Position numbers and translations under genes: made by a program
NCBI GenBank assembly: GCA_964556685.1
Contig: CAZKWX010000001.1
Span: forward strand, 95,854 to 159,853
From: an uncultured Bdellovibrionales bacterium
GTDB taxonomy: Bacteria; Patescibacteriota; Minisyncoccia; Moranbacterales; DUUL01
Reading direction: 5' to 3'
DNA: 64,000 nt
Notes under the pieces: model-generated
The model's input: only the letters and a program-made list of their open reading frames with translations
Databases searched by the model: none
What the model was told of the DNA's origin: nothing
In this document: in pieces, positions 11,257-50,918 of the stretch
Layout of the letters: each line of letters starts with the position of its first letter
Position numbering within the stretch: position 1 is the first letter of the stretch

Positions 11257-11784
11257 TGTTATAAATTACGGATTACAGATCAGATACAAATATACAGATG
11301 TACGAATAATCCTAAACTCTAATAGAAGATTTTTTATTAGTATATTCGTATTTGATTCGTCTCTCGAAGGGAGATCACCCTCCGGGTGATAATTAGTAGA
11401 GAAAAACAAAACCCGTCCCAATAATCCCAAACATATTGTCTGAAATCATCAGGACGAGCTTCTTCTATCTTCAGTACTAGCTACAAGTTACTAGTTACTG
11501 AACTACCCGCGGTTCCACCTGAATTCGTTTTGTTACGTAGCATGCTACGTAACAAACGCTCTTGTTTTTGTTGCTAACTCCGGGGTGCCAATCTCCCATC
11601 AACATTAGCGAAACTAGAAATAAGTATAAATCTTTTTATTTGCATGTCAATAGCAAAATCCACGATTTCAAATCCCCCCTACTTCGTCCCGAATGCTCGG
11701 GACTTCGAAGGGCAGGCCTGAAAAATGTGGCTCATGCTTCGCCTACATTTTTTCCCCCTTTGCTAAAAGGGGAAATTTCCTCTC

Positions 11785-19806: not shown

Positions 19807-22572
19807 TTAAGCTTTCTGAGGAGACCCCTCAATTGCAACTGCTGATTTTTGTTTTTTCCGTTTAACTAATAAGTGAACTAGCAATATTGCCAGCAATGTG
19901 ATCGGGAACCAGAGCATGGCATCACAACGATAGATCCACCACAAGACCAAACCACCAATCGTGAAAGCTGCCGGCACAACATACTTCCTCATGCCACCCA
20001 ATTCTAGCTCTTTATTGTTCCAGCGAAACAGCGACCAGTTGACCGCCAAGCCATATGAAACCAAAGCTGCAATCCAAATCCAAAGCGGCAACGCGGCACA
20101 AGCCTTGGCATCTGAAACCCCCAGCACCGGTGCTGCTTGAGCAGCCGGAACCAATTCAAAAGGAGGTTCACCTTCTTCAGCTCCGACATAATATCCTTCA
20201 TTCACCACTTGCATGGCCAGGATTGCTTTTCCACTTCTAACTTCATCATCCATCGGATCATCGCCCTTAGCTTTGGCCACGAACTCATAGATTCCGGCAG
20301 AAGCCGAATTATTAATTAGCAACATATATTCAATCATGTACTCGGCTCCTTCTTCCATGTCACCCAATGGCCAGACATATTTGGCGATTTCCACTCCGGC
20401 ATCATTAAATAATCGATCAGAAAGCTTCACATCATAAATCGTGCTATCTCCATCGTTTTCAACATAAATCACGTGATAGACAATTTGACCGTTCACCACT
20501 GGAGCAGAAATGGTTTTCTCTCTCTTCACTTTCAAGCTCGAATCAGGACCCAAATAACTCTCAACCTCATATCCATATTCATACTCGTTATATTCACCTT
20601 CATAATTGTAATAAAGTTTTGTCTCATCTGAATCTGAGTTATTACCCTTTTCCTTTTCTTCAGTTTCAGTGACAATCTCAACTTCAGCGAAAAGAATTTC
20701 TGGCCCGTTTTCAGATTTGACAATAACTTTCATTTCTCCTGCTTGTCCACTGGGCACACTGCCCAAATCCCAAGTATGCGATTTTTTTCCACCCATTTCT
20801 CCACCATTAAGCGACATTGCTAAAGATACATTTTCCGCATCGGCTTTTCCATTGTTTCTAAATTTAACTGTATATTCATTCTGCTCGCCGGCTTCTAGCT
20901 CCTCTTTTCCATCATCAATTTCGACTTCCAATTCCGGATAGGCGAACTCCAGATCTCCTGTCCATTCACCCATAACATTAACCACCCCAAAGAGCCAGTT
21001 GCTGCCAACGATGTTAGTGTTGACCAGGTTGAAAATGTTAGAAAAGGCGCCAGCGTTACCAGTGTTAATTGCCACATCTCCTCCATTTTGATTAGCTTGA
21101 TTTTCGCCAGTGTTTGCATTGGCCTGAGCTGTGTTCGTAATATTTGCTAGGTTGTAGTTTTTAACTGTTAATTTTGCATCCCCTTGCCCTTCTTCGTCGG
21201 CTAAGAAAACATACCCCAGTTCGTCACCTTCATCGCCAAACCAATTTAAGATTTTTCCCCACCAGTTGCCATTTTCGTTGATAGTTAAAGAAAACCAATT
21301 GCTGCCAACAATGTTGGTGTTGGCTTGCGTTTCAACTTGGCTTTGAGCAAAGGCATCGCCAGTTTCAATTTCGACATCGCCATCATTCCCGTTGGCTTCA
21401 TTGTCGCCAGAGTTGGCACTGGCCCCCGCATCATTTTCAATGTCAGCTTGATTTACATTTTCAATTTCAACTGATGAATATTCATTGTTGAAAAATGGGA
21501 AAGACAGCAAGCCTTCTCCCGGAACAATTAAATCTCCTGACCAGTGACCGAAAACGTTGATCACAACAAAGACCCAATTGTCACCCACAATGTTGGTGTT
21601 GACTATATTAACTACATTGACCACTGCTTGAGCATTGCCAGTGTTGATTTCCACATCCCCTTCGTTCTCATTAGCTTCATTTCTTCCTGAGTTAGCATTA
21701 GCCTCTGCATCATTTTCAATGTCAGCTTGATTTTTGTTTTCAATGACTAATTCATCTGGACCTCCATCTTCTTCTTCATTATTTTCCTCTTCATCCATCA
21801 ACCCAATTAGTTTAAGAATGATCTCTAGCAAATTTATATCCTCTTCACTATAACCATAAATATTTTCAACTAAATCTTCCCAGTTCTCACCGACAATATT
21901 TGTGTTAACTTCATTATAGATATTAGCTTCGGCTTGGGCATCTCCAGTTTCGATAATCACTTCATCGTTGTTCTCTTCGTCCCCTTCTTCGCCATTCTCC
22001 TCCTGATTTTCCTCTTCCTCTTCGTTTGATGTTTCCTCCTCTTCGGTTTCCTCGATTGCTGCTGCTTCCTCATTTAGTTCGACTTCTTCCCCTTCTTCAT
22101 TTAACTCCGCTGTTTCTTCTTCATTTTCTTCCTTGGGCGGACATTTTTTCTTTCCTTCATTATTTTCATCTCCTTCTCCTTCTTCATTGTTCTCTTCTTC
22201 GTGAACTTCACATTCATCTTCCTCTTCGTCGACTGATTCTTCTCCGTTATTATTAGCTTCATTGTCACCAGTGTTAGCATCAGACGTTGCTTCATTATCA
22301 ACATCGGCATCATTTTCATTTTCAATCTCCACTTTGGTTTCTTTTTCGTTGTTTCCTTCTTCTTCGTTATTCTCTTCTTGTTCTTCCTCTCCCTCTTCTT
22401 CCAACACTTCTTCTGTTTCTTCTATTACTTCCTCGGTTTCTTCCAGAGGCTCCTCTGCTAATGCTTGTGACACCGCTAACGGCATGGCGGCTTGAAGCAC
22501 GACCAAATTCATGGTTAGCACACCAACCATAAATGTTTTTAGTACTTTTCTCTTTTTGATCTTCAACAACAT
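19807..22572 (-). CDS. large acidic tandem-repeat surface protein (signal peptide, DUF11/CARDB-like module, C-terminal TM anchor)
   Basis: Signal peptide, a poly-E/N acidic region, and at least four copies of an ~55-aa motif (ENxNxADIENDAxAxANSGxNEANxNxGDVEIxTGxAxA...NTNIVGxNW). The C-terminus has two TM helices. Confidence 0.6.
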   Translation of the reverse strand: MLLKIKKRKVLKTFMVGVLTMNLVVLQAAMPLAVSQALAEEPLEETEEVIEETEEVLEEEGEEEQEENNEEEGNNEKETKVEIENENDADVDNEATSDANTGDNEANNNGEESVDEEEDECEVHEEENNEEGEGDENNEGKKKCPPKEENEEETAELNEEGEEVELNEEAAAIEETEEEETSNEEEEENQEENGEEGDEENNDEVIIETGDAQAEANIYNEVNTNIVGENWEDLVENIYGYSEEDINLLEIILKLIGLMDEEENNEEEDGGPDELVIENKNQADIENDAEANANSGRNEANENEGDVEINTGNAQAVVNVVNIVNTNIVGDNWVFVVINVFGHWSGDLIVPGEGLLSFPFFNNEYSSVEIENVNQADIENDAGASANSGDNEANGNDGDVEIETGDAFAQSQVETQANTNIVGSNWFSLTINENGNWWGKILNWFGDEGDELGYVFLADEEGQGDAKLTVKNYNLANITNTAQANANTGENQANQNGGDVAINTGNAGAFSNIFNLVNTNIVGSNWLFGVVNVMGEWTGDLEFAYPELEVEIDDGKEELEAGEQNEYTVKFRNNGKADAENVSLAMSLNGGEMGGKKSHTWDLGSVPSGQAGEMKVIVKSENGPEILFAEVEIVTETEEKEKGNNSDSDETKLYYNYEGEYNEYEYGYEVESYLGPDSSLKVKREKTISAPVVNGQIVYHVIYVENDGDSTIYDVKLSDRLFNDAGVEIAKYVWPLGDMEEGAEYMIEYMLLINNSASAGIYEFVAKAKGDDPMDDEVRSGKAILAMQVVNEGYYVGAEEGEPPFELVPAAQAAPVLGVSDAKACAALPLWIWIAALVSYGLAVNWSLFRWNNKELELGGMRKYVVPAAFTIGGLVLWWIYRCDAMLWFPITLLAILLVHLLVKRKKQKSAVAIEGSPQKA

Positions 22573-22771
22573 GTCTATGTATATTTAGAAATAATTTTGT
22601 AACCCTTGAATCGAGTCCTGATTTTCTTAAGACCTACTACTTACAACCAGACATACAACCAACGCCCTTCTTACCTACTGCCTTCCAATAAAGTCCACGG
22701 CTGAGGGGAAAAGTTTACCACCGCTTTCCCCCTCGAGCTGAGAACTCTATCGCTTATAAGCGATCACGTAA

Positions 22772-23287
22772 CTATCGGATCCTGGTTACGTTGCTGTTCA
22801 CCAATACTGTAGCTTCTGCCCAAGAGTCAGCATCGCCAGTATAGATTTCTACTGCTCCACCTCGACCTCCACAACGACCACACCGTCCTCTTCTGCTTCC
22901 ATTGTCATTAGCATCGTTCTTGCCAGTGTCTGATTCAGCGCTAACATCATTGTCAACGTCAGCGTCGTTTCCATTGCCTACCCACACTCGACTGTGCCGA
23001 CCGCTAATCATAGTTCGGTTTTCGTTAGCGGTTGTGTCAGCGTAAGCATCAGATATAGCATCGCCGGTATCAATCATAACTCTTCTGGCTCGGTTTCGAT
23101 TAGCATCGTTCTTACCAGTGTCTGATTCAGCGCTAACATCATTGTCAACGTCAGCGTCGTTCCAGTTTTCTACTGAAACGCTAGACCCACGATGATGATG
23201 GCGTCCTGCGAAAGCTGGAGCAACTACGAATGCAAATACTATAGCCGCTACAGGAATAATTGCTAAATACTTTTTCATTTTGTTCAC
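22772..23287 (-). CDS. secreted paralog carrying the same repeat motif
   Basis: Signal peptide plus two copies of NDADVDNDVSAESDTGKNDAN...TGDA. Also His-rich and Gly/Arg/Cys-rich segments. Confidence 0.55.
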   Translation of the reverse strand: MNKMKKYLAIIPVAAIVFAFVVAPAFAGRHHHRGSSVSVENWNDADVDNDVSAESDTGKNDANRNRARRVMIDTGDAISDAYADTTANENRTMISGRHSRVWVGNGNDADVDNDVSAESDTGKNDANDNGSRRGRCGRCGGRGGAVEIYTGDADSWAEATVLVNSNVTRIR

Positions 23288-24048
23288 CTTCCTTTCTAGT
23301 TTTAAGATTTATTTTACTTTCTGTTTATTTCATGCATCGCAAACAAAAACTGCCCCTTGGTTCAACTTTTTTTCAAGTAAACCAAAAGGCAGTCCCTGTT
23401 GTTCGAAATCACAAAAATTTTTCTTGAGTCAGAACGCTCAGAACAAATCATTGTTATCTCCTCTAATTCTTATCAATCCCTCCGCCCCTCCAAACCCTCC
23501 AAATCTCAAAAGCGAACTAACCTCCTATTATCTTTCTTACATAAGCCCTAACTGCGTTCTTTCATTATGATATATAATAATTTCTTAAAATGCAAACTAT
23601 TCTTGCTTCTTCGAATACCTCATGTAGGAAACGCACATGTGCGTTTCCTACGCTGACATCTGTCTGCGTCTTCATGATCCGATAATTTTTTAAAAGTTTC
23701 TTTTTATAACAACACAACTAACTCTTCATTGTCAATTATCGGATATACTGAAAAGTCTTTATTTAAAGTAAACTATTAAAGCTAAAATCTTTTACTCTTT
23801 TCCGGGTTTTTATAACGTTTTCAATGTTTTTCAATGTTTAAATTTTCAATTCGAGTTTTTTATAAACAAAAACCATATAAAAAAACAGGCATGTCAATGC
23901 CCATCTATTTTTTCTCCCCCTGCCCACCTGCCTTCCGTAGCTTTCCTGGCCTTCATAGTTTTAGCGAAGTGGACAGCGAAGGAAGGAGGGGGAGATACAG
24001 AGGGGGTGGGAGCTTTTCCCCATCGCCCCTTTGACCTCAGTGCTCTTG

Positions 24049-25464: not shown

Positions 25465-26448
25465 CTATTTTTCTTGTTGCTCTTCTGGTTTAAGAGTTAT
25501 TCCCAACGTCCCAATCGCTTTTTTGATCTCCTTGACTCCCTTTTCACCCATTCCTTCCAATTCAGAAAGATCCTCTTCAGTCATGGCTTCCAGTTGGTCA
25601 ACATTTTCGACATCATTAGCTTCCAAAACATTAAGGGTTCGAGTGGACAGATTTAAATCTCTCACACCTTTCGTTTCTTCTTCAACTTCCTCTTTCCCAT
25701 CCTCCTTTTCTTGGCCTTCTTCTTCGTCCACCACCAGTTCCTTCGGTGCATCTTCTTCATCAGCTCCAATGTTGGCCACTGCGTTGAACTGAGACATCAG
25801 AATTTCCACCGCTTGGGTGTAGGCTTCTTCTGGAGTGATGCTGCCGTCAGTCACTACTTCAAGAGTGATCTTGTCATAGTCTGTTCTTTTTCCAACTCGC
25901 ATGTTGTCAATGTCAAAATTAACTCTCTTAACCGGATTATAGACAGCGTCAATGGCGATAGTTCCAATTTCTTTTTCTTCTCGCTCTTGCTGTTCCACGG
26001 GAACATAGCCCAATCCTCTTTCCACTTTCACTTCCAATTCCAAAACTGCTGACGAGGTGGTGGTGTGAGCAACGACTTTCCCCGGATTGACCACTTCAAT
26101 TTCAGAAGTAGTTTTGAAATCCTTGGCGATTACTTCCTTTTCGCCCTTCACTTTGAGGAAAATAGTTGCTTCTTCAACATCGTGGAGTCTGAAGCGAACT
26201 TGCTTGAGATTCAACATTATTTGAACGGCGTCTTCCATCACTCCTTTAACAGTAGTAAATTCGTGAGTAATTCCCTTGATTTTCACCGCCGTAGCTGCAT
26301 TGCCTGGCAAAGACGAAAGCAGGGCTCGACGCAGCGAATTTCCAATGGTTGTTCCATAGCCCGGGAAACATCCTTCGATGACAAAGCGACCGCTGTTGTC
26401 ATCGATTTTCTCATACTTAGGTGATTTGGGGAGCGCGATTGAGATCAT
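25465..26448 (-). CDS. rpoA: DNA-directed RNA polymerase alpha subunit
   Basis: N-terminal domain GYGTTIGNSLRRALLSSLPG and an acidic C-terminal CTD. Confidence 0.93.
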   Translation of the reverse strand: MISIALPKSPKYEKIDDNSGRFVIEGCFPGYGTTIGNSLRRALLSSLPGNAATAVKIKGITHEFTTVKGVMEDAVQIMLNLKQVRFRLHDVEEATIFLKVKGEKEVIAKDFKTTSEIEVVNPGKVVAHTTTSSAVLELEVKVERGLGYVPVEQQEREEKEIGTIAIDAVYNPVKRVNFDIDNMRVGKRTDYDKITLEVVTDGSITPEEAYTQAVEILMSQFNAVANIGADEEDAPKELVVDEEEGQEKEDGKEEVEEETKGVRDLNLSTRTLNVLEANDVENVDQLEAMTEEDLSELEGMGEKGVKEIKKAIGTLGITLKPEEQQEK

Positions 26449-26670
26449 TTTTTTTACAATTAATAATTACTTTATTTTTTGTAATCCTTTACGAATTACT
26501 AATCAAATACCAATATACCAATAAAAATCCTAAACTCTAAATTCAAATACCTGAAATTCAAAATGTTCTGAGCTTAAAATTTGGAAAATTTGAATTTATT
26601 TAGGGTTTAGATATTAGGATTTAGGATTTAAACAAATTCGTATATTCGTACAAAATTCGTAATTCGTAAC

Positions 26671-27303
26671 CTATCGTGAGTAGAATTCAAGTACTGCTGC
26701 TAGATCCACATCTGAGATTGCTTCCTCTTTGGTCGGCTTGGACAGAACTTTGGCTTGCATATTTTTGGGATCGAGCGAAAGCCACGATGGCGTTTCTTGT
26801 TTTTTCTTCATGATTGATCGCAATTCTTTCATGTAGGTCTTCTCCATTTTTCCTTCCTTCACCTGAATCTCCTGACCCACTTTGATCTTGGCTGAGGGAA
26901 CATTCAGCACCTTGTCGCCCACAGTGAACATACTGTGGCTGACTAGTTGTCGAGCTTGCGCCCGAGAGCTTGCGATTCCCAAACGATAGATTATATTATC
27001 AAATCTGGATTCCAATTCCAAAATTAGATTATCACCCACCACACCTTTTTGTTTTTGAGCATTTCCCAAATGCCGGCGCAATTGCCGCTCTGACAGGCCA
27101 TAAAGTCTTTTGAGCTTTTGCTTCTCGGCTAGCTGTTTTCCAAATTCTGAAAGTCCTCTTTGCCCTTTTGGCCCGTGCATTCCTGGCACATAGGGCTTTC
27201 TAGTCACCGCGCACTTTGGCGTGAGACACCGATCACCCTTAAGAAAGAGCTTCTCTCCAGCCCTGCGACAAAGTTTACATTTTGAATTCGAATCTTTCGC
27301 CAT
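26671..27303 (-). CDS. rpsD: 30S ribosomal protein S4
   Basis: CKLCRRAGEKLFLKGDRCLTPKCA zinc ribbon plus the S4 domain. Confidence 0.93.
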   Translation of the reverse strand: MAKDSNSKCKLCRRAGEKLFLKGDRCLTPKCAVTRKPYVPGMHGPKGQRGLSEFGKQLAEKQKLKRLYGLSERQLRRHLGNAQKQKGVVGDNLILELESRFDNIIYRLGIASSRAQARQLVSHSMFTVGDKVLNVPSAKIKVGQEIQVKEGKMEKTYMKELRSIMKKKQETPSWLSLDPKNMQAKVLSKPTKEEAISDVDLAAVLEFYSR

Positions 27304-27492
27304 TTTAGATAATACTTAATAATGCTAATCTCATGCGAATTTTGCTAATATACCAATCGTTTTTTCTATTCGCATATTCGCAACATTCGCATACCATTCG
27401 TAGATTAGTATTATATTGTTCGTATCATTCGCATATCATTCGCCCGCCTGCTTTGCATGCACAGCATTGCGGGCAGGTGGATTAGTATTACA
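27304..27492. repeat. intergenic cassette between rpsK and rpsD with 11-bp terminal inverted repeats
   Basis: ATAATACT...GGATTAGTATTA ends. Internal CTAATCTCATGCGAAT, (C)ATTCGCAT direct repeats and a conserved GC hairpin (cattcgcccgcctgctttgcatgcacagcattgcgggcaggtgg). Confidence 0.75.
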
Positions 27493-28086
27493 TTAAACTC
27501 TTCTGGGCTTCTTTGGTCGACAACCATTGTGAGGAATTGGAGTTACATCTTTGATTGAAGACAAATTATATCCTTTCTGAACTAATGCCCGCAGAGCTGC
27601 ATCTCGACCACTGCCAACACCTTTAATGAAAACTTCGACATCTCTCAGGCCGAATCTTTGCACCTTGTCATGCGCATCATTGATCACTTGAGCAGCCGCG
27701 TAGGTGGTTGCTTTCTTGGCTCCTCTGAATCCCAAAAGTCCCGCCGAAGACCAAGCCAAGCCGTTGCCATGAATATCTGTGAATTGAATAGTGGTGTTGT
27801 TATAAGTCGACTTGATATATGCTCGTCCTTTCTGAATTTGTCTTCGAATCTTCTTTTTCTTTCGTCCGGAAGACTTATCGTCATTTTCTTTTTTACCCTT
27901 ATCATCTTTGCCAGTATCTTTTCTGTTTTCCTTTTTTTCATCAGCACTCTTGGATGTTTTGCTTTTTTTCTCCACCACAACATCGGCCTCTTTCGAGATC
28001 TTTTCTTCTTTCGCGTCAGCGCCCTTCGTAGCCCCGTTTTGACGGGGCGAAGTAGGGTCTTCAGTTTTCTTTTTCTCTTCAGCCAT
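27493..28086 (-). CDS. rpsK: 30S ribosomal protein S11 with ~70-aa Lys/Glu-rich N-terminal extension
   Basis: S11 core (GRAYIKSTYNNTTIQFTD...GSGRDAALRAL). Confidence 0.92.
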   Translation of the reverse strand: MAEEKKKTEDPTSPRQNGATKGADAKEEKISKEADVVVEKKSKTSKSADEKKENRKDTGKDDKGKKENDDKSSGRKKKKIRRQIQKGRAYIKSTYNNTTIQFTDIHGNGLAWSSAGLLGFRGAKKATTYAAAQVINDAHDKVQRFGLRDVEVFIKGVGSGRDAALRALVQKGYNLSSIKDVTPIPHNGCRPKKPRRV

Positions 28087-28313
28087 ATAAATATAATACT
28101 AATAACACTAATCTCATGCGAATGCCGCTAATACGCTAATAAATACAATACTAATGGATGTTACTTTATGCTAATCTTTCCTAGGTTCAATTCGCATATT
28201 CGCATCATTCGCATATCATTCGCCCGCCTGCTTTGCATGCACAGCATTGCGGGCAGGTGGATTAGTATTATACCCATTTGTACATCTGTATATCTGTACT
28301 TAATCTGTAATTA
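28087..28313. repeat. intergenic cassette between rpsM and rpsK (same family, TIRs ATAATACTAAT / ATTAGTATTAT)
   Basis: Same module order as 27304..27492. The GC hairpin is identical over 53 nt. Confidence 0.75.
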
Positions 28314-28703
28314 CTATGTTTTTTCAACACTCCTTCGACCACTGCCCATGGTCACTCGCTTATTACCTCGTACTGTACGCGTGTTGGTTCTGGTCTTTTG
28401 GCCCCGCACTGGCAATCCCTTGCTATGTCTTGATCCGCGATAGGAACCAACTTCTTTGAGTCGCTTGATGTTCATTGACTTCTGCCGCTTCAATTCTCCT
28501 TCTAGCGTATACTTATCTTCAATTTCGGCCCGCAGTTTGTTCAGATCATCGGCTGAAAGTTTGCCGGCTCGAATATCCTTGTCGATACTCAATCTATCCA
28601 AGATTTCTCCAGCTCGAGAACGACCGATGCCATAAACATAGGTTAGGGAAATTTCTATTCTTTTTTCATCGGGAATGTTCACCCCGGCGATTCTTACAGC
28701 CAT
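28314..28703 (-). CDS. rpsM: 30S ribosomal protein S13
   Basis: [27 protein letters not shown]... The start was moved from the ORF-track start to this internal Met. Confidence 0.92.
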
Positions 28704-28856
28704 AATTATAATACTAAATGACACTAATCTCATGTGAATACCACTAATATGCTAATCTTCTGTCCGATACTTATTCGCATATTCGCGTCATTCGCATGTC
28801 ATTCGCCCGCCTGCTTTGCATGCACAGCATTGCGGGCAGGTGGATTAGTATTGCGT
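28704..28856. repeat. intergenic cassette between rpmJ and rpsM (same family)
   Basis: Left end TAATACTAAAT, internal CTAATCTCATGTGAAT, ATTCGCAT repeats, identical GC hairpin, right end GGATTAGTATT. The right end abuts the rpmJ stop. Confidence 0.75.
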
Positions 28857-28970
28857 CTATCCTTGTCGTTGTTTATGCTTCGGATTTTTACAAATAACAT
28901 AAACTCGCCCTTTGCGTCGGACGATTTTACATTTGTCACATCTTTTTTTTACCGAAGCTTGAACTTTCAC
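28857..28970 (-). CDS. rpmJ: 50S ribosomal protein L36 (GTG start)
   Basis: Not in the ORF track (37 aa). Hand translation gives [37 protein letters not shown], a perfect L36 zinc-ribbon signature. Confidence 0.85.
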
Positions 28971-29335
28971 AGTTGTTTACGAATTACCTGCCCGCTTTGT
29001 GTTGCTGACTGGTAATGTTTTGCTAAATGCAATTAATTATTTGGAAAAAAATAACTTAAATCTGATTATCAAAGCAAGGCAGGCGGGCTAATCAAATACC
29101 AATATACGGATCTTTCTGTCAACGTTTAATGTCTAGTCTTAGTTCTCTTGTTTCCTTTCCCCCTTTAGCAAAGGGGGGAAGGAAAATATAGGCGAGTGAA
29201 GCGAGCCATATTTTTCAGGCCTGCCCTACGAAGCTTTCCTGACCTTCGTAGTTTCAACGAAGTAGGTTAGCGAAGTAGGGGGGATTTGAATTTGTTCGTA
29301 TATTCGTACTAAATTCGTAATTCGTAGAGAACTTT

Positions 29336-29554
29336 CTAGAGCCTGCGAGTAATCCGGCCTTTGGTCAAATCATAGGGACTCATTTCGATTTCAACCTTAT
29401 CACCCGGCATCAATTTGATAAAATGAATTCTCATTTTCCCGGAAATATGCGCCAAAATAATATGCCCGTTTTCAAGTTTGACTCGGAACATTGTGCTGGG
29501 AAGCAACTCGGTCACTTCCCCTTCAAGTTTTACAATTTCCTTTTCCTTAGACAT
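29336..29554 (-). CDS. infA: translation initiation factor IF-1
   Basis: [42 protein letters not shown]... The start was trimmed to the internal Met. Confidence 0.9.
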
Positions 29555-29907
29555 AAATGTAATACTAATGATGCTAATCTCATGCAAATACCACTAATAT
29601 GCTAATAAGTACAATACTAATGATGCGAATTTATGCTAATCTACAAATATGCTAATCTTACTTAAGTTCTATTCGCATATTTGTGTCATTCGCATTCATT
29701 TGTAAATTTGTATTATACCTATTCGTATATTCGTACACAATTCGTAATTAGTAGAAAACACAAAAACAGAAGGTGTTTTAAACAGACCGGTCCGAGGTCT
29801 TGATTTCAACCCTATAACCTTCGTTAGTTACGTATGAATAAATTTTTCAAGATTAACCGCTACAATCCAGACTATATAAAAAAGCAGTAATTGTCAAGCG
29901 TTTTCGG

Positions 29908-30096
29908 CTATTCCTTCCAGTCTTTAATAGTTATTTCTTTTTTCTTCTCGTCTATGTTCAACTCCACTTTTTGCTTTTCTTTCCACCTCCAACGACGTAT
30001 AACATCGATCGGAAGAGTTATGGCATAGCTTGAACCACCAGAAATCTTGGTAATCTTCCTGATATTTCTCTCTTCTAATTTTCTTCTAGTCTTCAT
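29908..30096 (-). CDS. AbrB/MazE/SpoVT-family DNA-binding protein (antitoxin-like)
   Basis: GGSSYAITLPIDVIRRW swapped-hairpin motif. 62 aa. Confidence 0.5.
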   Translation of the reverse strand: MKTRRKLEERNIRKITKISGGSSYAITLPIDVIRRWRWKEKQKVELNIDEKKKEITIKDWKE

Positions 30097-37354: not shown

Positions 37355-37382
37355 CACTCTCATATATGCATATATGAGAGTG
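37355..37382. repeat. 28-bp perfect palindrome cactctcatatatgcatatatgagagtg (second copy at 50669..50694)
   Basis: Verified base by base. It lies directly between the leuS stop and leuS-3' copy 2. Confidence 0.85.
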
Positions 37383-37388
37383 CTCGTG

Positions 37389-40300
37389 TTAAGTTACAAT
37401 GTTAACTAGCCGTCCTTTCACATAAATCACTTTCTTTGGTTTCTTTCTTCCTAAGTGTCTTTGTACTTTTTCGCTTCCCAAAGCAATCTTCTCTGCTTCT
37501 TTCTCTGAAATATCTTTTGAAACCATCACTTTATCACGCACTTTGCCATTGACCTGAATCACCAATTCAATTTCATCTTCAATTACTTTCTTGGGATCAA
37601 ACTTGGGCCATCTTTGTTCAAAGATTGAAGTATGCTTCTGGGCTTTCTTATTTTCCCCCTTTAGCAAAGGGGGTGTCCCGGCCTTGCCGGGACGGAGGAT
37701 TTGAAGTTCAGCCCAAAATTCTTCCGCTATATGAGGTGCCATTGGGGCTATAACCAATGCTAACGTCTCTTTTACCTTTTTAGCTTGAACTTTGTTAAAA
37801 TCATCTTTGTGATCCCGCATCCAGTTGACATATTCCATAATCCTCGCCACTGCTGTGTTGAAAGAAAGTTTTTCAATATCTTCTCCAACAACTTTGATTG
37901 TTTTGTCAATCATAGACATGTTCAATGGCTTTGTCTTGTTTTGTAGATGACGCAGATCTGCGTCATCTACAGACTTTGTATCGTCTGCTCCTACCTCATG
38001 AAAAACTTTCCACATTCGATTGAGGAACTTGTGCATTCCTTCAATGCCACTGTCTCGCCAGTCACCACCTTGGGCAAAGTCTCCTACAAATCGAAGATAG
38101 AGCCGTACAGTGTCAGCACCATACTTTTTGATCGCATCATCGGGGTTAACCACATTGCCTTTCGATTTGCTCATCTTAGTCCCGTCTTTGGTAATCAAAC
38201 CATGTCCAAAAAATCTCTTGTAAGGCTCGTCAAAATCAATGTAACCCAAGTCTTTCAAAACCATGGTCATGAAACGAGAATAAAGAAGATGTAAGACTGT
38301 GTGCTCCTTGCCACCAATGTAACTGTCCACCGGCAGCCATTTCTTGGTTCGCTTTCTGTCAAAAATCACCTCATTAAATTCAGTCGATGGATAGCGGAAA
38401 AAATACCAAGCGCTGTCGAGGAACGGATCCGAGACATCGGTTTCTCGCTCGGCGTCTCCTTCACAAACTGGGCATTTAACTTTGACAAACTTTTCATTTT
38501 TGGCCAAAGGCCCCTTGCCTTTCCCTTCCGGCAAAAAATCTTCCATCGGTGGTAATTTCACCGGAAGATCTTCCTCGGGAACCGAGACTGCCACTGGCTC
38601 AATACTCTCTTGGATTTTCTCTAGCAATTCTGGAAACTTCTTATTCTTTGGATTATCATCTACACAAAAATGCTTCCTGCCTTTAAGTTTTATTAATTTT
38701 GCACCCAACTTATTGCTAATCATCTCTGCACTTTCAACTCGATGAGTTTTGTCATTTGAGATAAAAATGGTCAGACTCTCAATCTGGTTTTTCAAACTCG
38801 AGTCAATTTTAAAATCAACAAAGCCTTTTATTCGCTCTTCTCTCTTAACTAATTTTTTAGATGGAGCATTTAAAATAACATTTCTAGCTTTTCTCCCTGT
38901 TTCTGATAGCCATTTTAATATAAAAGCTCCTCCGGCACTTGTTCCAACTAAAATTGTATCTTCATCAACATCAAAATTATCAATAGTTTCTTTCCAGTCT
39001 TCATAGTCCGGCTTCCAGTCTGTCGGCATAATTGGATTTATAACTTCAAATCCGTTCTTTTTCAGCTCTTTTTCAAGCCAGCTATGCCAATGTCGAACAT
39101 TCGGTTCAACATAATCTTTGTCGTGAGCTTTCGTCCGACCTGAAGAACCATGGATCATTAAAACTTTAATCCTTTTCAGCCCCTCCTTTTTCCTCCCCTT
39201 ACTAAGGGGAGGATTTAGGTGGGGTCCAAGCGCACAGCGCTTGCACCAGACAATCGGAATCGGCGGCCCCCAATATCTTTGCCGTGAAATGCACCAGTCA
39301 CGTAATTTGTAATTAACCGTCCATTTTCCATTTCCCTTTTCGACAGAAAAATCACCAATTGCTTTTCGAGCTTTCTTGGTTGGCATATCATCGAATTTCC
39401 CAGCATTCATCATCAGTCCCTCATTAACATAAGCCTTTTTCATTTTCTTTGGATCAAGCTTCTTTTCTCCCTTGGGATAAATCACGGGCACCAAATCTAG
39501 CTTATATTTTTTGGCAAACTCAAAATCTCTTTGATCGTGAGTGGGAGTGCACTTTACAATTCCCGTGCCATATTCATAGACAGCGAAATTAGCAGTATAA
39601 ATTGGCATTTCCCGGCCATTGAGATGATTGATCGCATACCGACCTGTAAAAAATCCTTCTTTCTTCTTTTCGACGTTGGCTGGGTCTTTGACTTTTTCTT
39701 CAATCACCTTCCGGCAGAAATCTTTGGCTCCTTTTTCATATTTTGTGCCTTGGACTAATTCATCAACAACAGGATGTTCTGGAGCAACAACCATAAAAGT
39801 AGCTCCCCAAGTGGTGTGTGGCCAGGTGGTAAAAGTTTTCAATTTTAATTTTATATCTTTGACTTTCCATTCTTCTTCCAAACCTTTACTTTTTCCAATC
39901 CAATTCCTCTGATTGGTTTTCACATCATCCGGCCAGTCGATCCAATCTAAATTCTTTAATAGCTGATCGGCATATTTAGTAATAGCAAAAAACCATTGCT
40001 TTAATTCTTTTTTCTCAACAACGCTGTCGCAGCGTTCGCACTTTCCTGCAATCACCTGTTCATCAGACAAAACTGTTTTACATGAAGGACACCAGTTCAC
40101 CTTGGCTTCTTTTTGATAGGCTAGTCCCTTCTTGAACATCTGCAGAAAAATCCATTGAGTCCACTTATAATAATTCGGTTTGTAAGTCTCCACTGTCCGC
40201 GACCAATCATACATGTTTCCGATTTCATGCAATTGCCGATAGAAATTTTTCTCACTCCTTTTAGAAACATCGCTAATGTGTTCGCCAATTTTCATGGCAT

Positions 40301-42039: not shown

Positions 42040-42147
42040 TAAAAAACCCCTGAAAAATACGGCTCGCTATACTTGCCCGTATTTTTCTTCCCCCTTTATA
42101 AAGAGGGACACAGAGGGTTTTTATCAATCGAGATTGTTAATTTTCTT

Positions 42148-44537: not shown

Positions 44538-45938
44538 TCAGCAACAATATAGCTTATCTGGAATTTCATCGTCCGACTTCTCGCCAAATGGATTATTGTG
44601 TTTTTTTATATTTTTTAACATCTCTTTGTTCGACTCAGTTTGCATTCCTTTTTTCTCCTGCTCTGCACGAATCATTCGAACATAATATGGTAGTTTAATT
44701 CCCATGGGACAATTCCGGTGACAGACTCCGCAGAAGGTACAAGAAAAACTACCGGCGTCTTTGGCCCTTCTCAGCATTTCATTATCTAGATCACGACTTG
44801 CATCGTTCGCACCCTTCCGCGCCAATCCGCGTTCAGTCTGCGCGGATCCGCGCGCTCCATCCTCTTGGAGCGATAGATTGGCTGTCATGATGATTCCTTT
44901 TGATCCAGCAAATTTTCCGCCATATTTTTTGCCCATTTGATGATAGACTGGACAAAAATTGACGCAGGCTCCACAATTGATGCAACGCACCATTTCATCG
45001 AATCCTTTCTTGACCATTTCCCTTCTTCCATTGTCCACCAATATTAGATGCACTTCTTTGGCCCCCTGAGCTCCCTCCACTAGTTGATTTTCAATATCAG
45101 CTGTTTTTGATGGTCCAGAAACAACTGAAATATACTGAGCACAATCTTGACCAGTTCCAAAAACTGCCGCTACTCGACAAAGTTGAGTTGCATCTTCAAT
45201 AGTTTCAACCAATTTATCGATTCCACAAATTACGATGTGCTTCTCAGGAATACGCGAAACCAGAGAAATGTTTCCTTCATTTTCTAACAACACAACTTGT
45301 CCCGTCTGCGTGAAAAAATTCGCCCCGGTGATTCCCGTGTCTGCTTGTAAAATATTAGCTCTTATTTTTTTACAAAGATAGCGAGTGAGTTTTTTTGGAT
45401 CAGCTTTCACTTCATCTCCATAGACTTCTTTAATCCTTTCAGCAATTTGTTTACTATTCAAATGAAGCGCTGGCAACACATAATGTTGATCTTCTTCTTC
45501 CATCAAATTCACCACGAAGTCTCCTAGATCCGTTTCAAAATTATCCTGCCCCATTTTTTCTAGTAATTTTTCAACGCCAATTTCCTTCCCCATGTTTGAT
45601 TTAGACTTTACGATCTTATCTGTATCTTTAGAGGTACCTTTTTCCGCCCAAGGCGGACCAGCCTTTGGCTGGAAGATTTTTTTTAGTAAATTTCGTGCTT
45701 CACCTGCGTCTCTAACTTCAGAAACTTTAAACCCATGTTTTTGCAGATTTTCTTTCGCTTCTTTTAAGTTTTTTTCAAAGTTATCACCAAAAACTTTTTT
45801 TCTGATTTTTTTCACTTCGTTCCGATATTCATCTTTTGTCACGCCCAAATCTTCCAGCGTCCGAATGCGCTTTTTTCCGTAGTTGTAAACTACTTTCTTG
45901 ATTGATTGTTTGGTTTTATCGTCTAAAAATCTTGACAT
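44538..45938 (-). CDS. LutB-like iron-sulfur protein (LUD/DUF162 domain + 2x[4Fe-4S] ferredoxin motifs)
   Basis: CINCGACVNFCPVY and CTFCGVCHRNCPMG Cys clusters plus an N-terminal LUD-type domain. Confidence 0.65.
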   Translation of the reverse strand: MSRFLDDKTKQSIKKVVYNYGKKRIRTLEDLGVTKDEYRNEVKKIRKKVFGDNFEKNLKEAKENLQKHGFKVSEVRDAGEARNLLKKIFQPKAGPPWAEKGTSKDTDKIVKSKSNMGKEIGVEKLLEKMGQDNFETDLGDFVVNLMEEEDQHYVLPALHLNSKQIAERIKEVYGDEVKADPKKLTRYLCKKIRANILQADTGITGANFFTQTGQVVLLENEGNISLVSRIPEKHIVICGIDKLVETIEDATQLCRVAAVFGTGQDCAQYISVVSGPSKTADIENQLVEGAQGAKEVHLILVDNGRREMVKKGFDEMVRCINCGACVNFCPVYHQMGKKYGGKFAGSKGIIMTANLSLQEDGARGSAQTERGLARKGANDASRDLDNEMLRRAKDAGSFSCTFCGVCHRNCPMGIKLPYYVRMIRAEQEKKGMQTESNKEMLKNIKKHNNPFGEKSDDEIPDKLYCC

Positions 45939-45991
45939 GTTTTATAATACTAATCCGCGAATCTTATACGAATCTACAAATATGCCAATGT

Positions 45992-46396
45992 TTATTCCTT
46001 AGCATATGAGTTGATCACGCGTTTTGGAATTAGGTATTTTTGATGAAAATTGATAAGCAATCCTAATTTCTTATTTGAGAATCTTAAGTATCTTTTTATT
46101 TGGTTGTAATCTTCTCTGACGAATCCTCTTTTTGCTTTCACTTCCAGAATAATTTGGTCTTCTATAATAAAATCTATTCTATTACTATTGTTTTTGATAT
46201 ATTCACTTTCCGTCTCGACTATTACTTCTTTTTCGTAGAACATCCCTTTTTCAATGAGAAGTTTTTCCAAGGCATCACAATATTGTTTTTCCCGACAATA
46301 GTTGCCTAATTCATTGTGAACCTCAAAAAGCATGCCTGTTATTTCGTATGACAATTCTGGATAAATTATTTTTCCTTCGTTATCTTTGATTCGCAC
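45992..46396 (-). CDS. GxxExxY-family protein (PD-(D/E)XK nuclease-like)
   Basis: SYEITGMLFEVHNELGNYCREKQYCDAL matches the GxxExxY signature. Confidence 0.6.
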   Translation of the reverse strand: MRIKDNEGKIIYPELSYEITGMLFEVHNELGNYCREKQYCDALEKLLIEKGMFYEKEVIVETESEYIKNNSNRIDFIIEDQIILEVKAKRGFVREDYNQIKRYLRFSNKKLGLLINFHQKYLIPKRVINSYAKE

Positions 46397-46429
46397 ATTT
46401 GCAGATTAGCATTTATTTGTAGATTCGTA

Positions 46430-47140
46430 TTATAATCTCATATATTTATTCCAATAATCATATAACTCCCTCGTCGACACCAAGTCTCGCGCATTGTAGC
46501 GAGCGATGTCGAGATGTTTTCCTTCCCCAAAAAGCCGAGTTACGTCATCACCATTGATCCCCTCTTCTTTGGGACTTTTGATTCCGAAAGCTCGGCAACA
46601 CAAATGTAAATTTGTTCGTCCCCAAACTGCTCCATAGAAATTGAGTTGATCCATCAGATCAACGTGCTTTGAATCGCGTGGTTGCAAATTTAAATAGCGA
46701 TTGGCCATCAGATTCTTGCTCGGTCGAATCTTGTGAATAGCACTGCGAATCATCAAATAGGGTACATCGAACCCTCTCCCATTGAAACTGACAAATTCTT
46801 CTGCCTTCTCCGCCACCTTCCAAAAACTTTCTAGAATTTCTTTTTCGCCCATCGGTTTGAACTTGATTCCTTCTTCTTCAAACTCCTTGGCATCATCGGC
46901 TAAATTCTGGTGATAGACTGCGCCTTTCTTGGTGTCAGCGTCCAGAACTCCCACCGCGACAATTTCGCCTGTCAGCGGTGAAAAAACCAGCTCATTTTTG
47001 ATTTTCTCCAATTCTTCGTCAAATTTTTCTCCCGGCTCATCACCAACTCTGATTTTTTTGGTCAGCACTTTTTGGGTGACTTCGTCCATCTGGTCATAGT
47101 CTTCCCCAATTGTTTCAATGTCGAAAATAATTTTTGGCAT
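46430..47140 (-). CDS. DEDDy-type 3'-5' exonuclease (PolB-exonuclease-like)
   Basis: Exo I FDIET, Exo II FNGRGFDVPYL, Exo III YNARDL. Confidence 0.65.
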   Translation of the reverse strand: MPKIIFDIETIGEDYDQMDEVTQKVLTKKIRVGDEPGEKFDEELEKIKNELVFSPLTGEIVAVGVLDADTKKGAVYHQNLADDAKEFEEEGIKFKPMGEKEILESFWKVAEKAEEFVSFNGRGFDVPYLMIRSAIHKIRPSKNLMANRYLNLQPRDSKHVDLMDQLNFYGAVWGRTNLHLCCRAFGIKSPKEEGINGDDVTRLFGEGKHLDIARYNARDLVSTRELYDYWNKYMRL

Positions 47141-48345: not shown

Positions 48346-48557
48346 TCCTTCTTTATTTCCCCCTTTAGCAAAGGGGGAAGAAGAATTGAGACGAATCATG
48401 TTACCGAAAGGTAACGTGATGAGTCCAATTCTTCAGGGGGATTTGAATTTATAGTACTGAAAATCCCTCTGAAAAATATGGCTTATTACATTCGCCTATA
48501 TTTTCCTTCTCCCTTTTTCAAAGGAAGAAACACAATTAAATTCATGATTCGTAAAAC

Positions 48558-49394: not shown

Positions 49395-50918
49395 ATGCAG
49401 AAACTCAACCAATATAAAATCTATCTATTTTATCTCTTCCTTTTCCTCATTCCGTTCAATTTGCGGATAATTTTTAATTTCGATCGAATCAACAATCTCG
49501 AAGGTTTTCGCGAACACATCACACACTCTTTCTACGCATTCGATTTGATTTTTATTCTGTTATTGCTAGTTGTTCTGCTTGATTGGCTGCAGAATAAACG
49601 ACCAAAGACTTCAACATCAAAAAAGATTTTCACTAACCCCCTTTTCTATTTCGTTATAACGACCGTTATAACGTCGGTTTTGGCCCTCAACCAGACAGTG
49701 GCTTTCCAACAAACTTTGAGGATCGCACAAGCAGTCGTTTTCTTTTTGATAGCTAATAGCATTCTTTCAAGTTCCCCCTCTTGGGGCAAAAGTGGAGAAT
49801 TGCGAATGAGTAATTCTCGGGGAGTTAAGAAACCCGGATGGGATTCAAAACCATTTTATATTTCAATCTTAATAATTTTTCTTAGTGGAACTCTCCAATC
49901 ACTTATTGCTCTTTGCCAGTTCATTTTTCAAAAATCAGTCGGACTGAAAATTCTGGGGGAAAGCGTCATTGCACCAGAAATTTTGGGCGTGGCTAAATTT
50001 GAAATCCTGGGAGAAAAACTGATCCGCGCTTATGGCACTTTTCCTCATCCCAATCTTTTAGCTGCGTTTTTGTTACTGTCGTTGGCCTGTGGAGCTTTCT
50101 TGTTGATTTATAAAAAATCTTCTCCCTTTTACAAGAAAAAATATAAATATGTCAGCGATCTGCTTTCCAAAAATTATTTCTATACAATTGGAACTGTAAT
50201 GATTTTATTCGGTGTCTGCCTGACCTATTCTCGCAGTGTAATCTTGGCTACTGTCGTTTTTATTATTTTATTGTGGATTGGACATCGCAAAAAAGTAGGC
50301 GATGTCTATCGAGGCTGGTGCAAACAACTGCGTATTCATTCTATTTTCCAAACAGCCTTAGCAGTGTTGGCAATTTTTGCAGTTACTTTTTTACTTTATA
50401 ATATTTTTGCTCCCCGTCTTTGTTTTTCTAATTGTTTTAATGACAATTCCATTGAACTGCGAGGAAGATATAGCGCTGCCGCAGCAGAAATTATTGTTCA
50501 AAATCCACTCACCGGAGTGGGACCAGGAAATTTTGTCATTGCCCTAGCTGATTCTTCTGTCGGTGCAACGCTTCAACCTTGGGAATTTCAGCCAGTTCAT
50601 AATTTGTATCTGCTCATTGCTTCAGAAATCGGTCTCGTCGGCCTGGTATTTCTCCTAATCTTTGTTTCCACTCTCATATATGCATATATGAGAGTAAAGT
50701 TGGGGCGCACTTTGAATCTGCAATCATTGGTTGGAAATCCTTTTTTTATTTTACTTTTGGCTTTCCTTTTTCTGGGATTAATTGATCATTATTTCTGGAC
50801 TCTTCCTCAAGGACTACTCATCTTTTGGCTTAGCCTTGCGTTTTTTGATATGTCCAGTAAGATAAAAGTTGAACCCAAACAGAGGAGGTCACATGCCCTA
50901 CGTACCGAAATATACTAG
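49395..50918 (+). CDS. O-antigen ligase/polymerase-like integral membrane protein
   Basis: About 12 TM helices with a periplasmic-loop YSRSVILAT motif typical of the Wzy_C/O-antigen ligase family. Confidence 0.5.
   Translation: MQKLNQYKIYLFYLFLFLIPFNLRIIFNFDRINNLEGFREHITHSFYAFDLIFILLLLVVLLDWLQNKRPKTSTSKKIFTNPLFYFVITTVITSVLALNQTVAFQQTLRIAQAVVFFLIANSILSSSPSWGKSGELRMSNSRGVKKPGWDSKPFYISILIIFLSGTLQSLIALCQFIFQKSVGLKILGESVIAPEILGVAKFEILGEKLIRAYGTFPHPNLLAAFLLLSLACGAFLLIYKKSSPFYKKKYKYVSDLLSKNYFYTIGTVMILFGVCLTYSRSVILATVVFIILLWIGHRKKVGDVYRGWCKQLRIHSIFQTALAVLAIFAVTFLLYNIFAPRLCFSNCFNDNSIELRGRYSAAAAEIIVQNPLTGVGPGNFVIALADSSVGATLQPWEFQPVHNLYLLIASEIGLVGLVFLLIFVSTLIYAYMRVKLGRTLNLQSLVGNPFFILLLAFLFLGLIDHYFWTLPQGLLIFWLSLAFFDMSSKIKVEPKQRRSHALRTEIY

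Follow-up and report, generated by a model that had tools for sequence, protein, structure and literature searches.

Here we describe the spaces between the genes of a ribosomal protein operon in a 64,000-nt stretch of contig CAZKWX010000001.1 (assembly GCA_964556685.1; hereafter the window), and the repeated elements that fill them. The genome belongs to the Patescibacteria (candidate phyla radiation, CPR), near the Moranbacteria, and its closest S4 proteins are only 69-70% identical. On the minus strand the genes follow one another in the order infA, rpmJ, rpsM, rpsK, rpsD, rpoA, rplQ, rplM and rpsI. The gaps measure 365 nt (infA-rpmJ), 153 nt (rpmJ-rpsM), 227 nt (rpsM-rpsK), 189 nt (rpsK-rpsD) and 222 nt (rpsD-rpoA). 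A preliminary description of the window had called these gaps unusually long, and a check of the spacing bears this out: in five relatives the same junctions are compact (rpsM-rpsK, 23-43 nt; rpsK-rpsD, 9-36 nt), and the cassettes described below are absent from the corresponding places. Two independent Logan assemblies, from different SRA runs, match the filled rpsM-rpsK and rpsK-rpsD gaps at 100% identity; the fillers of these two gaps are therefore not assembly artefacts. The organism is present in SRA runs SRR24302411-423 and SRR8146442. The features that the argument needs are given below from upstream to downstream, the genes being taken from Pfam and the listing of open reading frames (ORFs).

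29790-29897, minus strand: promoter and leader of infA, with TTGACA ... TATAGT, then GAAGGT ... ACCTTC followed by a U-rich run; conserved in five relatives
29721-29754, minus strand: solo canonical 5′ arm, C-TACTAAT-TACGAAT-tgtg-TACGAAT-A-TACGAAT, abutting cassette A and fitting the 33-nt consensus discussed below
29558-29717, minus strand: cassette A, upstream of infA, without the GC hairpin
29336-29554, minus strand: infA
28977-29327, minus strand: palindrome of the infA-rpmJ gap, canonical TACGAAT type (5′ arm 29294-29327, 3′ arm 28977-29111)
28987-29087, minus strand: GC-clamp element of 101 nt, CCCGCCTGCC ... GCGGGCAGG, inserted between ATTAG and TA of a word in that 3′ arm
28857-28970, minus strand: rpmJ
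28706-28852, minus strand: cassette B, rpmJ-rpsM gap, GC hairpin core at 28805-28837
28314-28703, minus strand: rpsM
28276-28310, minus strand: variant word array, TTACAGAT-taag-TACAGAT-A-TACAGAT-g-TACAAAT, after the stop codon of rpsM and before cassette C
28092-28272, minus strand: cassette C, rpsM-rpsK gap, GC hairpin core at 28222-28254
27493-28086, minus strand: rpsK
27309-27490, minus strand: cassette D, rpsK-rpsD gap, GC hairpin core at 27442-27474
26671-27303, minus strand: rpsD
26489-26669, minus strand: palindrome of the rpsD-rpoA gap, canonical TACGAAT / ATTGGTA, with 34-nt arms that are 79% complementary
25465-26448, minus strand: rpoA
45942-46435, minus strand: full-length relative of the cassettes, with arms enclosing a gene for a GxxExxY nuclease, between an exonuclease gene and lutB

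Four of the fillers are homologous cassettes of 147-182 nt, found upstream of infA and in the rpmJ-rpsM, rpsM-rpsK and rpsK-rpsD gaps. They align in register, all on the mRNA strand, with their 3′ ends about 4-6 nt before the ATG of the next gene. The repeats are far more frequent than chance would allow, and the repeated module of constant orientation reported in the preliminary description is largely real. The leader motif CATGAGATTAGYRYYATT occurs four times against 0.69 expected, and GATTAGTATTAT, when up to one mismatch is allowed, nine times against 0.34. The GC hairpin had been reported as identical in three copies, and its 33-nt core is indeed present in cassettes B, C and D with no mismatch, and in none of the shuffles. 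A family of 80-nt repeats likewise has three copies, 93-98% identical.

The borders of the cassettes are less uniform than had been claimed. Cassette A starts with TATAATACAAAT and ends with TTAGTATTACA, 3-4 nt before the ATG at 29554, and has the leader motif at 29567-29584. Cassette B starts with AATACTAATCC, 4 nt past the stop codon, and ends with TATTATAA, 2 nt before the ATG; cassette D is set 2 nt from the stop codon and 5 nt from the ATG. In the rpsM-rpsK gap, cassette C is preceded by the separate 35-nt TACAGAT array. Similarly, of the 11-bp terminal inverted repeats ascribed to every copy, a perfect one (12/12) is found only in cassette C (TATAATACTAAT / ATTAGTATTATA), where inner arms of 25 nt are 80% complementary. 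In the other copies the two ends match only if an indel is allowed, and the repeat is no more than the tip of inverted word arrays that are longer and imperfect, with 25-nt arms matching at 80-84%. Being small, non-coding and bounded by terminal inverted repeats, the cassettes have the make-up of MITEs (transposable elements of the miniature inverted-repeat type).

In each cassette arm some five degenerate 7-nt words follow one another, spaced by about 8, 8-9, 11 and 8-9 nt and capped by TATAA. Words near the stop codon have the form T[AG]CNAAT, and those near the ATG the form ATTNG[CT]A. When TRCNRAT and its reverse complement are mapped, the same order is seen in every spacer, forward words in the stop-proximal half and reverse words in the ATG-proximal half. 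In intergenic DNA, words of the TRCNRAT type reach about four times the density that they have in coding DNA, and ATTCGTA/TACGAAT is the top intergenic 7-mer when near-pure A/T words are excluded (19 of its 21 copies are intergenic).

Database searches with the cassettes returned little. No Rfam family matched within any of the four, at the gathering threshold or at E <= 5; the only Rfam matches inside a gap are weak ones to microRNA models, in the loop of the infA-rpmJ palindrome. The 33-nt hairpin core had no match in metagenome contigs. In a collection of genome contigs, to which the window's genome does not belong, it had one chance match, in a coding region of a GC-rich Phycisphaerae metagenome-assembled genome. 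Neither the hairpin nor the TACGAAT arm had a match in viral sequences.

The ends of the cassettes are also the ends of the element at 45942-46435 (TATAATACNAATC / GATTNGTATTATA), and this element encloses a gene. Its 5′ word array starts with TTATAATACGAATC, overlapping the stop codon of the exonuclease gene, and its 3′ array ends with GATTAGTATTATAA, 3 nt before the ATG of lutB at 45938; the inverted arms match over 21 nt at 81%. A leader at 45939-45965 and a fragment at 46391-46440 had been noted earlier as related copies, which they are, but they are really the two arms of this one element. The gene runs from a GTG at 46396, within the last word of the 5′ arm, to 45992 on the minus strand. 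Its product of 134 aa matches Pfam PF13366 (PDDEXK_3; 8e-22) and TIGR04256 (4e-20). The gene is intact and lies wedged co-directionally between the gene of a PolB-like 3′-5′ exonuclease and lutB. Across 47 GxxExxY homologues the catalytic residues D75, E85 and K87 are retained, and the structural model (predicted local distance difference test score, 89.7) is that of a predicted minimal PD-(D/E)XK nuclease, for which the nearest solved folds, at weak scores, are Cas4 and lambda exonuclease. A search of the literature on GxxExxY, PF13366 and TIGR04256 yielded only a table entry in which the function of the family is given as 'unknown' (PMC3424549).

A second element of this kind ties the gene more closely to the cassettes. 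Logan contigs L130-L133, from an SRA series containing the same organism, carry a GxxExxY gene 73% identical to that of the window; on L130 it lies between the tgt and glycosyltransferase genes. In blastn comparisons the 3′ arm on L130 matches the rpsK leader (52 nt, 84.6% identity) and the infA leader (82 nt, 78%), and the 5′ arm matches the GCGAAT arrays at 73-88%, so that both halves of the alpha-operon cassettes have counterparts there. Seven 3′ arms can be aligned word by word, three from GxxExxY elements and four from the cassette leaders, and each stops 3-6 nt short of the next ATG. This shows the cassettes to be gene-less homologues of the arms that flank GxxExxY genes. Confinement of the family with inverted ends to the operon would, by the terms of the preliminary description, have refuted its reading. 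The family is not so confined: besides the operon, the copies known include the lutB locus of the window and a single locus on L130.

The association holds further afield. The arm-flanked gene belongs to PF13366/TIGR04256 in the window, on L130, L135 and L141, and at eight metagenome loci among the matches listed. GxxExxY genes of Falkowbacteria, Staskawiczbacteria and a Flavobacteriaceae genome have the same layout with other words: TGCTAAT, mixed TGCNAAT and CGCAAAG, respectively. The Flavobacteriaceae example (L140, 1433-1933; GCA_003931895.1) is from outside the CPR; here the gene lies between the genes for the E2 and E1 components of a 2-oxoacid dehydrogenase, flanked by inverted arrays of CGCAAAG / CTTTGCG.

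Not every gap holds the cassette, as had been stated. The infA-rpmJ and rpsD-rpoA gaps hold different palindromes, built of TACGAAT. The first is related to, but different from, the cassettes and has a 182-nt loop with a three-hairpin CCCCCTTTGCTAAAGGGGG element. When the 101-nt GC-clamp element is excised in silico from its 3′ arm, GATTAGTAATTCGTAA, a canonical arm, is restored, as read from the sequence. The rpsD-rpoA palindrome has a second palindrome (AAATCCTAAA...) nested inside it at 26525-26629. Canonical arms of 33 nt are found in the window at 26636-26669, 29294-29327 and 29721-29754.

Smaller hairpins accompany the word arrays. A GC-clamp family, CCTGCCCGCAATGCT ... GCAGGCGGGC, is nested in them at 28987-29087, 27442-27474, 28222-28254 and 28805-28837, and related hairpins are present at metagenome loci L121 and L092. 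A separate family consists of two or three consecutive hairpins (CCCCCTTTAGCAAAGGGGG, AAAAATATGGC..GCCTATATTTT and CTTCG..CGAAG), is found in both orientations, and often sits in the loops of TACGAAT palindromes. Its sites are 29130-29290, 11257-11400, 23279-23400, 37643-37675, 42040-42147 and 48347-48557 in the window, L031, and the start of L130.

The 33-nt arm, C-TACGAAT-TACGAAT-N4-TACGAAT-A-TACGAAT, is widespread. A scan of metagenome contigs with TACGAATNNNNTACGAATATACGAA found it, conserved almost to the base, on at least 120 contigs (L007-L126); the arm statistics that follow are among the matches listed. The consensus, drawn from 129 metagenome instances, has sharp borders. An inverted partner accompanies 81 arms, with loops mostly of -2 to 60 nt and a second group at about 400-540 nt; such a pair usually takes up the space from one gene to the next. 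These pairs are inverted doublets of a short unit forming a hairpin, as are repetitive extragenic palindromic (REP) sequences arranged as REPINs (REP doublets forming hairpins). Where subfamilies differ, both arms change together, as in TACGAAA with TTTCGTA. In at least eight arm loci a GxxExxY homologue lies between the arms or alongside them. In all eight of the listed loci, as in the window, this gene is co-directional with its neighbours (L097 is short and has one neighbour only). At L070 (about 225-520) the two terminal parts of GxxExxY, N and C, are joined in a 61-aa ORF within a 187-nt loop between arms; this ORF reads as an internal-deletion intermediate, a remnant of the gene.

At its outer edge an arm comes within 0-9 nt of the stop codon that precedes it or within 5-11 nt of the ATG that follows. 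Arm-bearing junctions, counted without distance limits, number 93, and are co-directional in 82 cases, divergent in 8 and convergent in 3. The co-directional enrichment is modest (88% vs. 80% background; p = 0.027). The adjoining genes are diverse housekeeping genes, including those for S10 (four times), L5, L16, L22, L13, SecY and SSB. One arm locus is from Candidatus Nealsonbacteria, and the 33-nt signature is common to distant Patescibacteria. In two diverged genomes the arm stands in frame (PTNYE[F/Y]LTNIRI) within Mur-ligase-like ORFs of 460-476 aa (L078, about 1225-1258; L115, minus strand, about 1322-1355). Our search of the literature found no description of the arms or of their link with GxxExxY, the matches to the arm sequence being unrelated, and nothing specific on palindromic repeats of the CPR.

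We prefer the view that the cassettes are non-autonomous, MITE- or REPIN-like derivatives of the GxxExxY element that invaded the operon, multiplied in it, and are read through from the infA promoter. We would put its probability at somewhat under 60%. The full-length form would be a GxxExxY PD-(D/E)XK gene of about 130 codons between arms, placed between two co-directional host genes and pointing in the same direction. Word-array elements would have colonised the intercistronic junctions of the infA-rpoA cluster, and would have lost the nuclease gene or been copied without it. Local spread would have followed, leaving three copies with a derived, nested GC-clamp mini-hairpin that are 93-98% identical over 80 nt; the shared hairpin would then be the mark of the three youngest copies. 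The cassettes would most likely be transcribed passively in the operon mRNA from the conserved infA promoter, and the downstream genes would be translated by Shine-Dalgarno-independent initiation, the norm in this genome. That the element moves, that the nuclease mobilises it and that the cassettes are read through passively are what we infer from these features. The partners with the same ends (45942-46435 and L130) encode a PD-(D/E)XK GxxExxY protein, not a recognised transposase.

Several points weigh against this view. The action of the nuclease on the arms is something that we purely infer. Target-site duplications are absent from 79 canonical palindromes, where direct repeats of 2-6 nt are at the level of shuffles, and from the flanks of the cassettes; nor was an empty-site allele seen in five Logan contigs of the lutB locus. 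The elements abut stop and start codons so closely that the margins fall far below the spacer lengths of the relatives, and exact arms are ATG-proximal in 21 of the 29 oriented cases. Together, the flush margins and the ATG-proximal bias hint at selection tied to the expression of the downstream gene.

A bolder reading, which we hold to be doubtful, would make GxxExxY proteins and 7-mer arrays an undescribed class of operon-invading elements spanning phyla. It would resemble REPINs with their REP-associated tyrosine transposases (RAYTs) but with a different enzyme. Recognition of the iterated words by the nuclease would lead to its own copying, or that of the arms alone, into intercistronic junctions, and the abundant gene-less palindromes of Patescibacteria, those in this operon among them, would be empty or decayed sites. 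In a more radical variant, the arms would be cut at the RNA level, the element excising itself from the operon mRNA.

A rival reading sets the elements at the RNA level. They would form intercistronic stems, which either are cut by RNase III, as in rRNA intervening sequences, to give stable short-leader cistrons or bring stop and start codons together for termination-reinitiation. We find this unlikely, although it survives better than the other alternatives. The spacers do fold better than shuffles (z = -2.2 to -3.4) and contain long nested hairpins: the predicted fold of cassette B is at -46.1 kcal/mol (z = -2.24), that of C has a 17-bp closing stem and is at -62.7 kcal/mol (z = -2.30), and that of D has z = -3.41. 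The foot of the stem is close to the codons on either side (0-9 nt for the stop, 5-11 nt for the start), and the concerted change of both arms across subfamilies is as expected of a stem. The mismatches, however, do not favour pairing in RNA. A test for the G-U over A-C asymmetry expected of selection on RNA was null (24 G-U and 29 A-C mismatches on the transcribed strand), most arm mismatches are transversions, and the N4 spacers are unpaired (22% Watson-Crick). Besides, many arms adjoin one gene border only, and arms are also found in frame within coding regions.

The preliminary description saw in the cassette a portable terminator and promoter that had split the operon into separately driven units. 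The hairpin would end the upstream transcript, and TTCRCA-N16-19-TATTAT would start a leaderless or very-short-leader mRNA. We consider this very improbable. The GC hairpin is followed by GAAUGA and not by the U-run of an intrinsic terminator, and a terminator scan found no site in any cassette. In favour of a promoter, a TATTAT or TAGTAT box ends 4-7 nt before four ATGs and before lutB (4 nt in cassette B), and ATG-proximal arms are better conserved throughout the family. A sigma-70-like match of 9/12 is found in only two of the four cassettes, as TTCACA-16-TAGTAT and TTCGCA-18-TATTAT; these place the -10 hexamer some 6-7 nt ahead of the ATG, an arrangement that would suit a leaderless mRNA, whereas the rpsD and infA copies fail on spacing or on T6. 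Promoter-like sites in the region, 18 in all, are not above shuffles (11.8 +/- 3.6), and the clear promoters of this genome use TTGACA. Canonical arms have no -10-like box at the homologous place, and neither does the homologous 3′ arm of Falkowbacteria, which ends TCAGCATCACATT-ATG. Divergent junctions hold few of the elements (8 of 93).

The lack of Shine-Dalgarno sequences, correctly seen in the preliminary description, does not bear on leaderless starts. It is uninformative about the cassettes because 44 of the 57 window genes (77%), including the cassette-free rpoA, rplQ, rplM and rpsI, have none, and the compact spacers of the relatives are likewise without them. Nor does a split into separately driven units find much support, as the conserved infA promoter lies upstream of cassette A, which is thus itself inside the 5′ untranslated region of infA. 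The stem in the infA leader has a consensus with compensatory changes in three pairs (the window with L003, L005 and L127-L129). It matches no Rfam family and is a candidate attenuator or autoregulatory leader.

Alternatively, the words could be binding sites of a host DNA-binding protein, a regulator or a nucleoid-associated protein, with GxxExxY genes merely inserting there by preference. The 7-nt words are conserved and the spacers between them are not, the borders are sharp, and a spacing of 7+4 recalls direct-repeat operators. The same word is present in distant Patescibacteria (the Nealsonbacteria contig and the Moranbacteria-like genome of the window). Yet the words vary by lineage in step with the enclosed or nearby GxxExxY cassette, gene-decay intermediates lie inside arms, arms occur in tandem multiples and inside ORFs, and no candidate binding protein has been identified, so that we attach little probability to this reading. 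Finally, a regulatory leader of the S4/alpha-operon type is rejected because three copies are identical, the relatives have no cassettes and Rfam gives no support (the alpha-operon ribosome-binding-site leader, RF00140, scores 15.2 bits against a gathering threshold of 38, and inside rpsM), and DNA-uptake sequences are rejected because the arms are too short for specificity.

It is useful to set the elements beside known systems. The REPIN concept is that of REP units as inverted pairs. Like REP and REPIN elements with their transposases, the RAYTs (Di Nocera et al., 2013; PMC3733652), those described here are short palindromic units, mostly in inverted pairs that form long hairpins; they are numerous, gene-less and mainly between co-directional genes, their repeats also flank the gene of a small enzyme, and the canonical arm ends in GTAG. 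However, the gene here is a PD-(D/E)XK GxxExxY nuclease and not an HUH Y1 transposase, and no Y1 transposase of the RAYT kind was found among about 30 window proteins scanned. Unlike the single GC-rich palindrome of a REP, the arms are arrays of four to five iterated 7-mers; GTAG is at the outer 3′ end (the opposite polarity), where it is part of a word, and the elements are flush with start codons.

Neisseria Correia elements are MITEs with reported promoter elements and RNase III sites. The cassettes share with such MITEs a length of 100-200 nt, terminal inverted repeats, the lack of coding sequence, insertion between genes and, probably, co-transcription with them. They differ in having no target-site duplication, unrelated ends, no DDE-transposase parent that we could find, and weak evidence for promoters. 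The rRNA intervening sequences with small ORFs, such as that of Coxiella with S23p (PMC4990558), are also selfish insertions in a highly transcribed unit, with inverted flanks able to form a long stem and an optional small ORF co-directional with the host transcript. The elements here are instead between protein-coding genes, their ORF is of a nuclease family, and the arm mismatches do not favour RNA pairing.

The free-standing homing endonuclease genes of phages (seg, mob) are small nuclease genes between conserved genes, and the GxxExxY gene is similarly wedged co-directionally between conserved housekeeping genes. But homing endonuclease genes are normally without conserved inverted word-array flanks and leave no abundant gene-less palindromes. 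Two other groups deserve mention: the palindromic elements of Rickettsia, and the heptamer repeats of cyanobacteria with their nested small dispersed repeats. Occasional in-frame copies in genes, a texture of heptamer words and nested tiny GC hairpins are all shared with these; the sequences and the lineage are different, and the link with GxxExxY is specific to the present elements.

The region has other peculiarities. In two relatives (L005, 4704-4986, and L128, 3577-3985; about 67-69% S4 identity), unrelated word palindromes flank rpmJ on both sides, with the words GTAGTGA / TCACTAC and TTCTAAT / ATTAGAA. Insertion beside rpmJ appears to be recurrent. Between a 681-aa gene and infA lies a MazE/AbrB-like ORF of 62 aa (29908-30096, minus strand), which the relatives do not have there. 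S11 (27493-28086) has an N-terminal extension of about 85 aa rich in Lys, Glu and Asp, L17 (24965-25447) a Lys/Glu-rich tail, and RpoA (25465-26448) an acidic insert before its C-terminal domain. Elsewhere in the window, diverged tandem or dispersed repeats of 94-113 nt (families D1 and D2) lie inside ORFs of 921 and 168 aa at 21053-23173, and two identical 27-nt perfect palindromes, CACTCTCATATATGCATATATGAGAGT, are at 37355-37381 and 50669-50695.

In closing, we return to what the fillers mean for their host and for the GxxExxY family. Bacteria of the candidate phyla radiation have small, streamlined genomes, and yet about 1.2 kb of repeat DNA lies here inside one of the most conserved operons. 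There is also a caution: where Shine-Dalgarno sequences are missing from most genes of a genome, the AT-rich ends of elements should not be taken for promoters. The 33-nt signature could be used in annotating intergenic regions and in explaining breaks in metagenome contigs, as well as for studying how elements are tolerated between translationally linked genes. The link to the fillers would give the little-studied GxxExxY family a testable role, that of the enzyme of a palindromic element.

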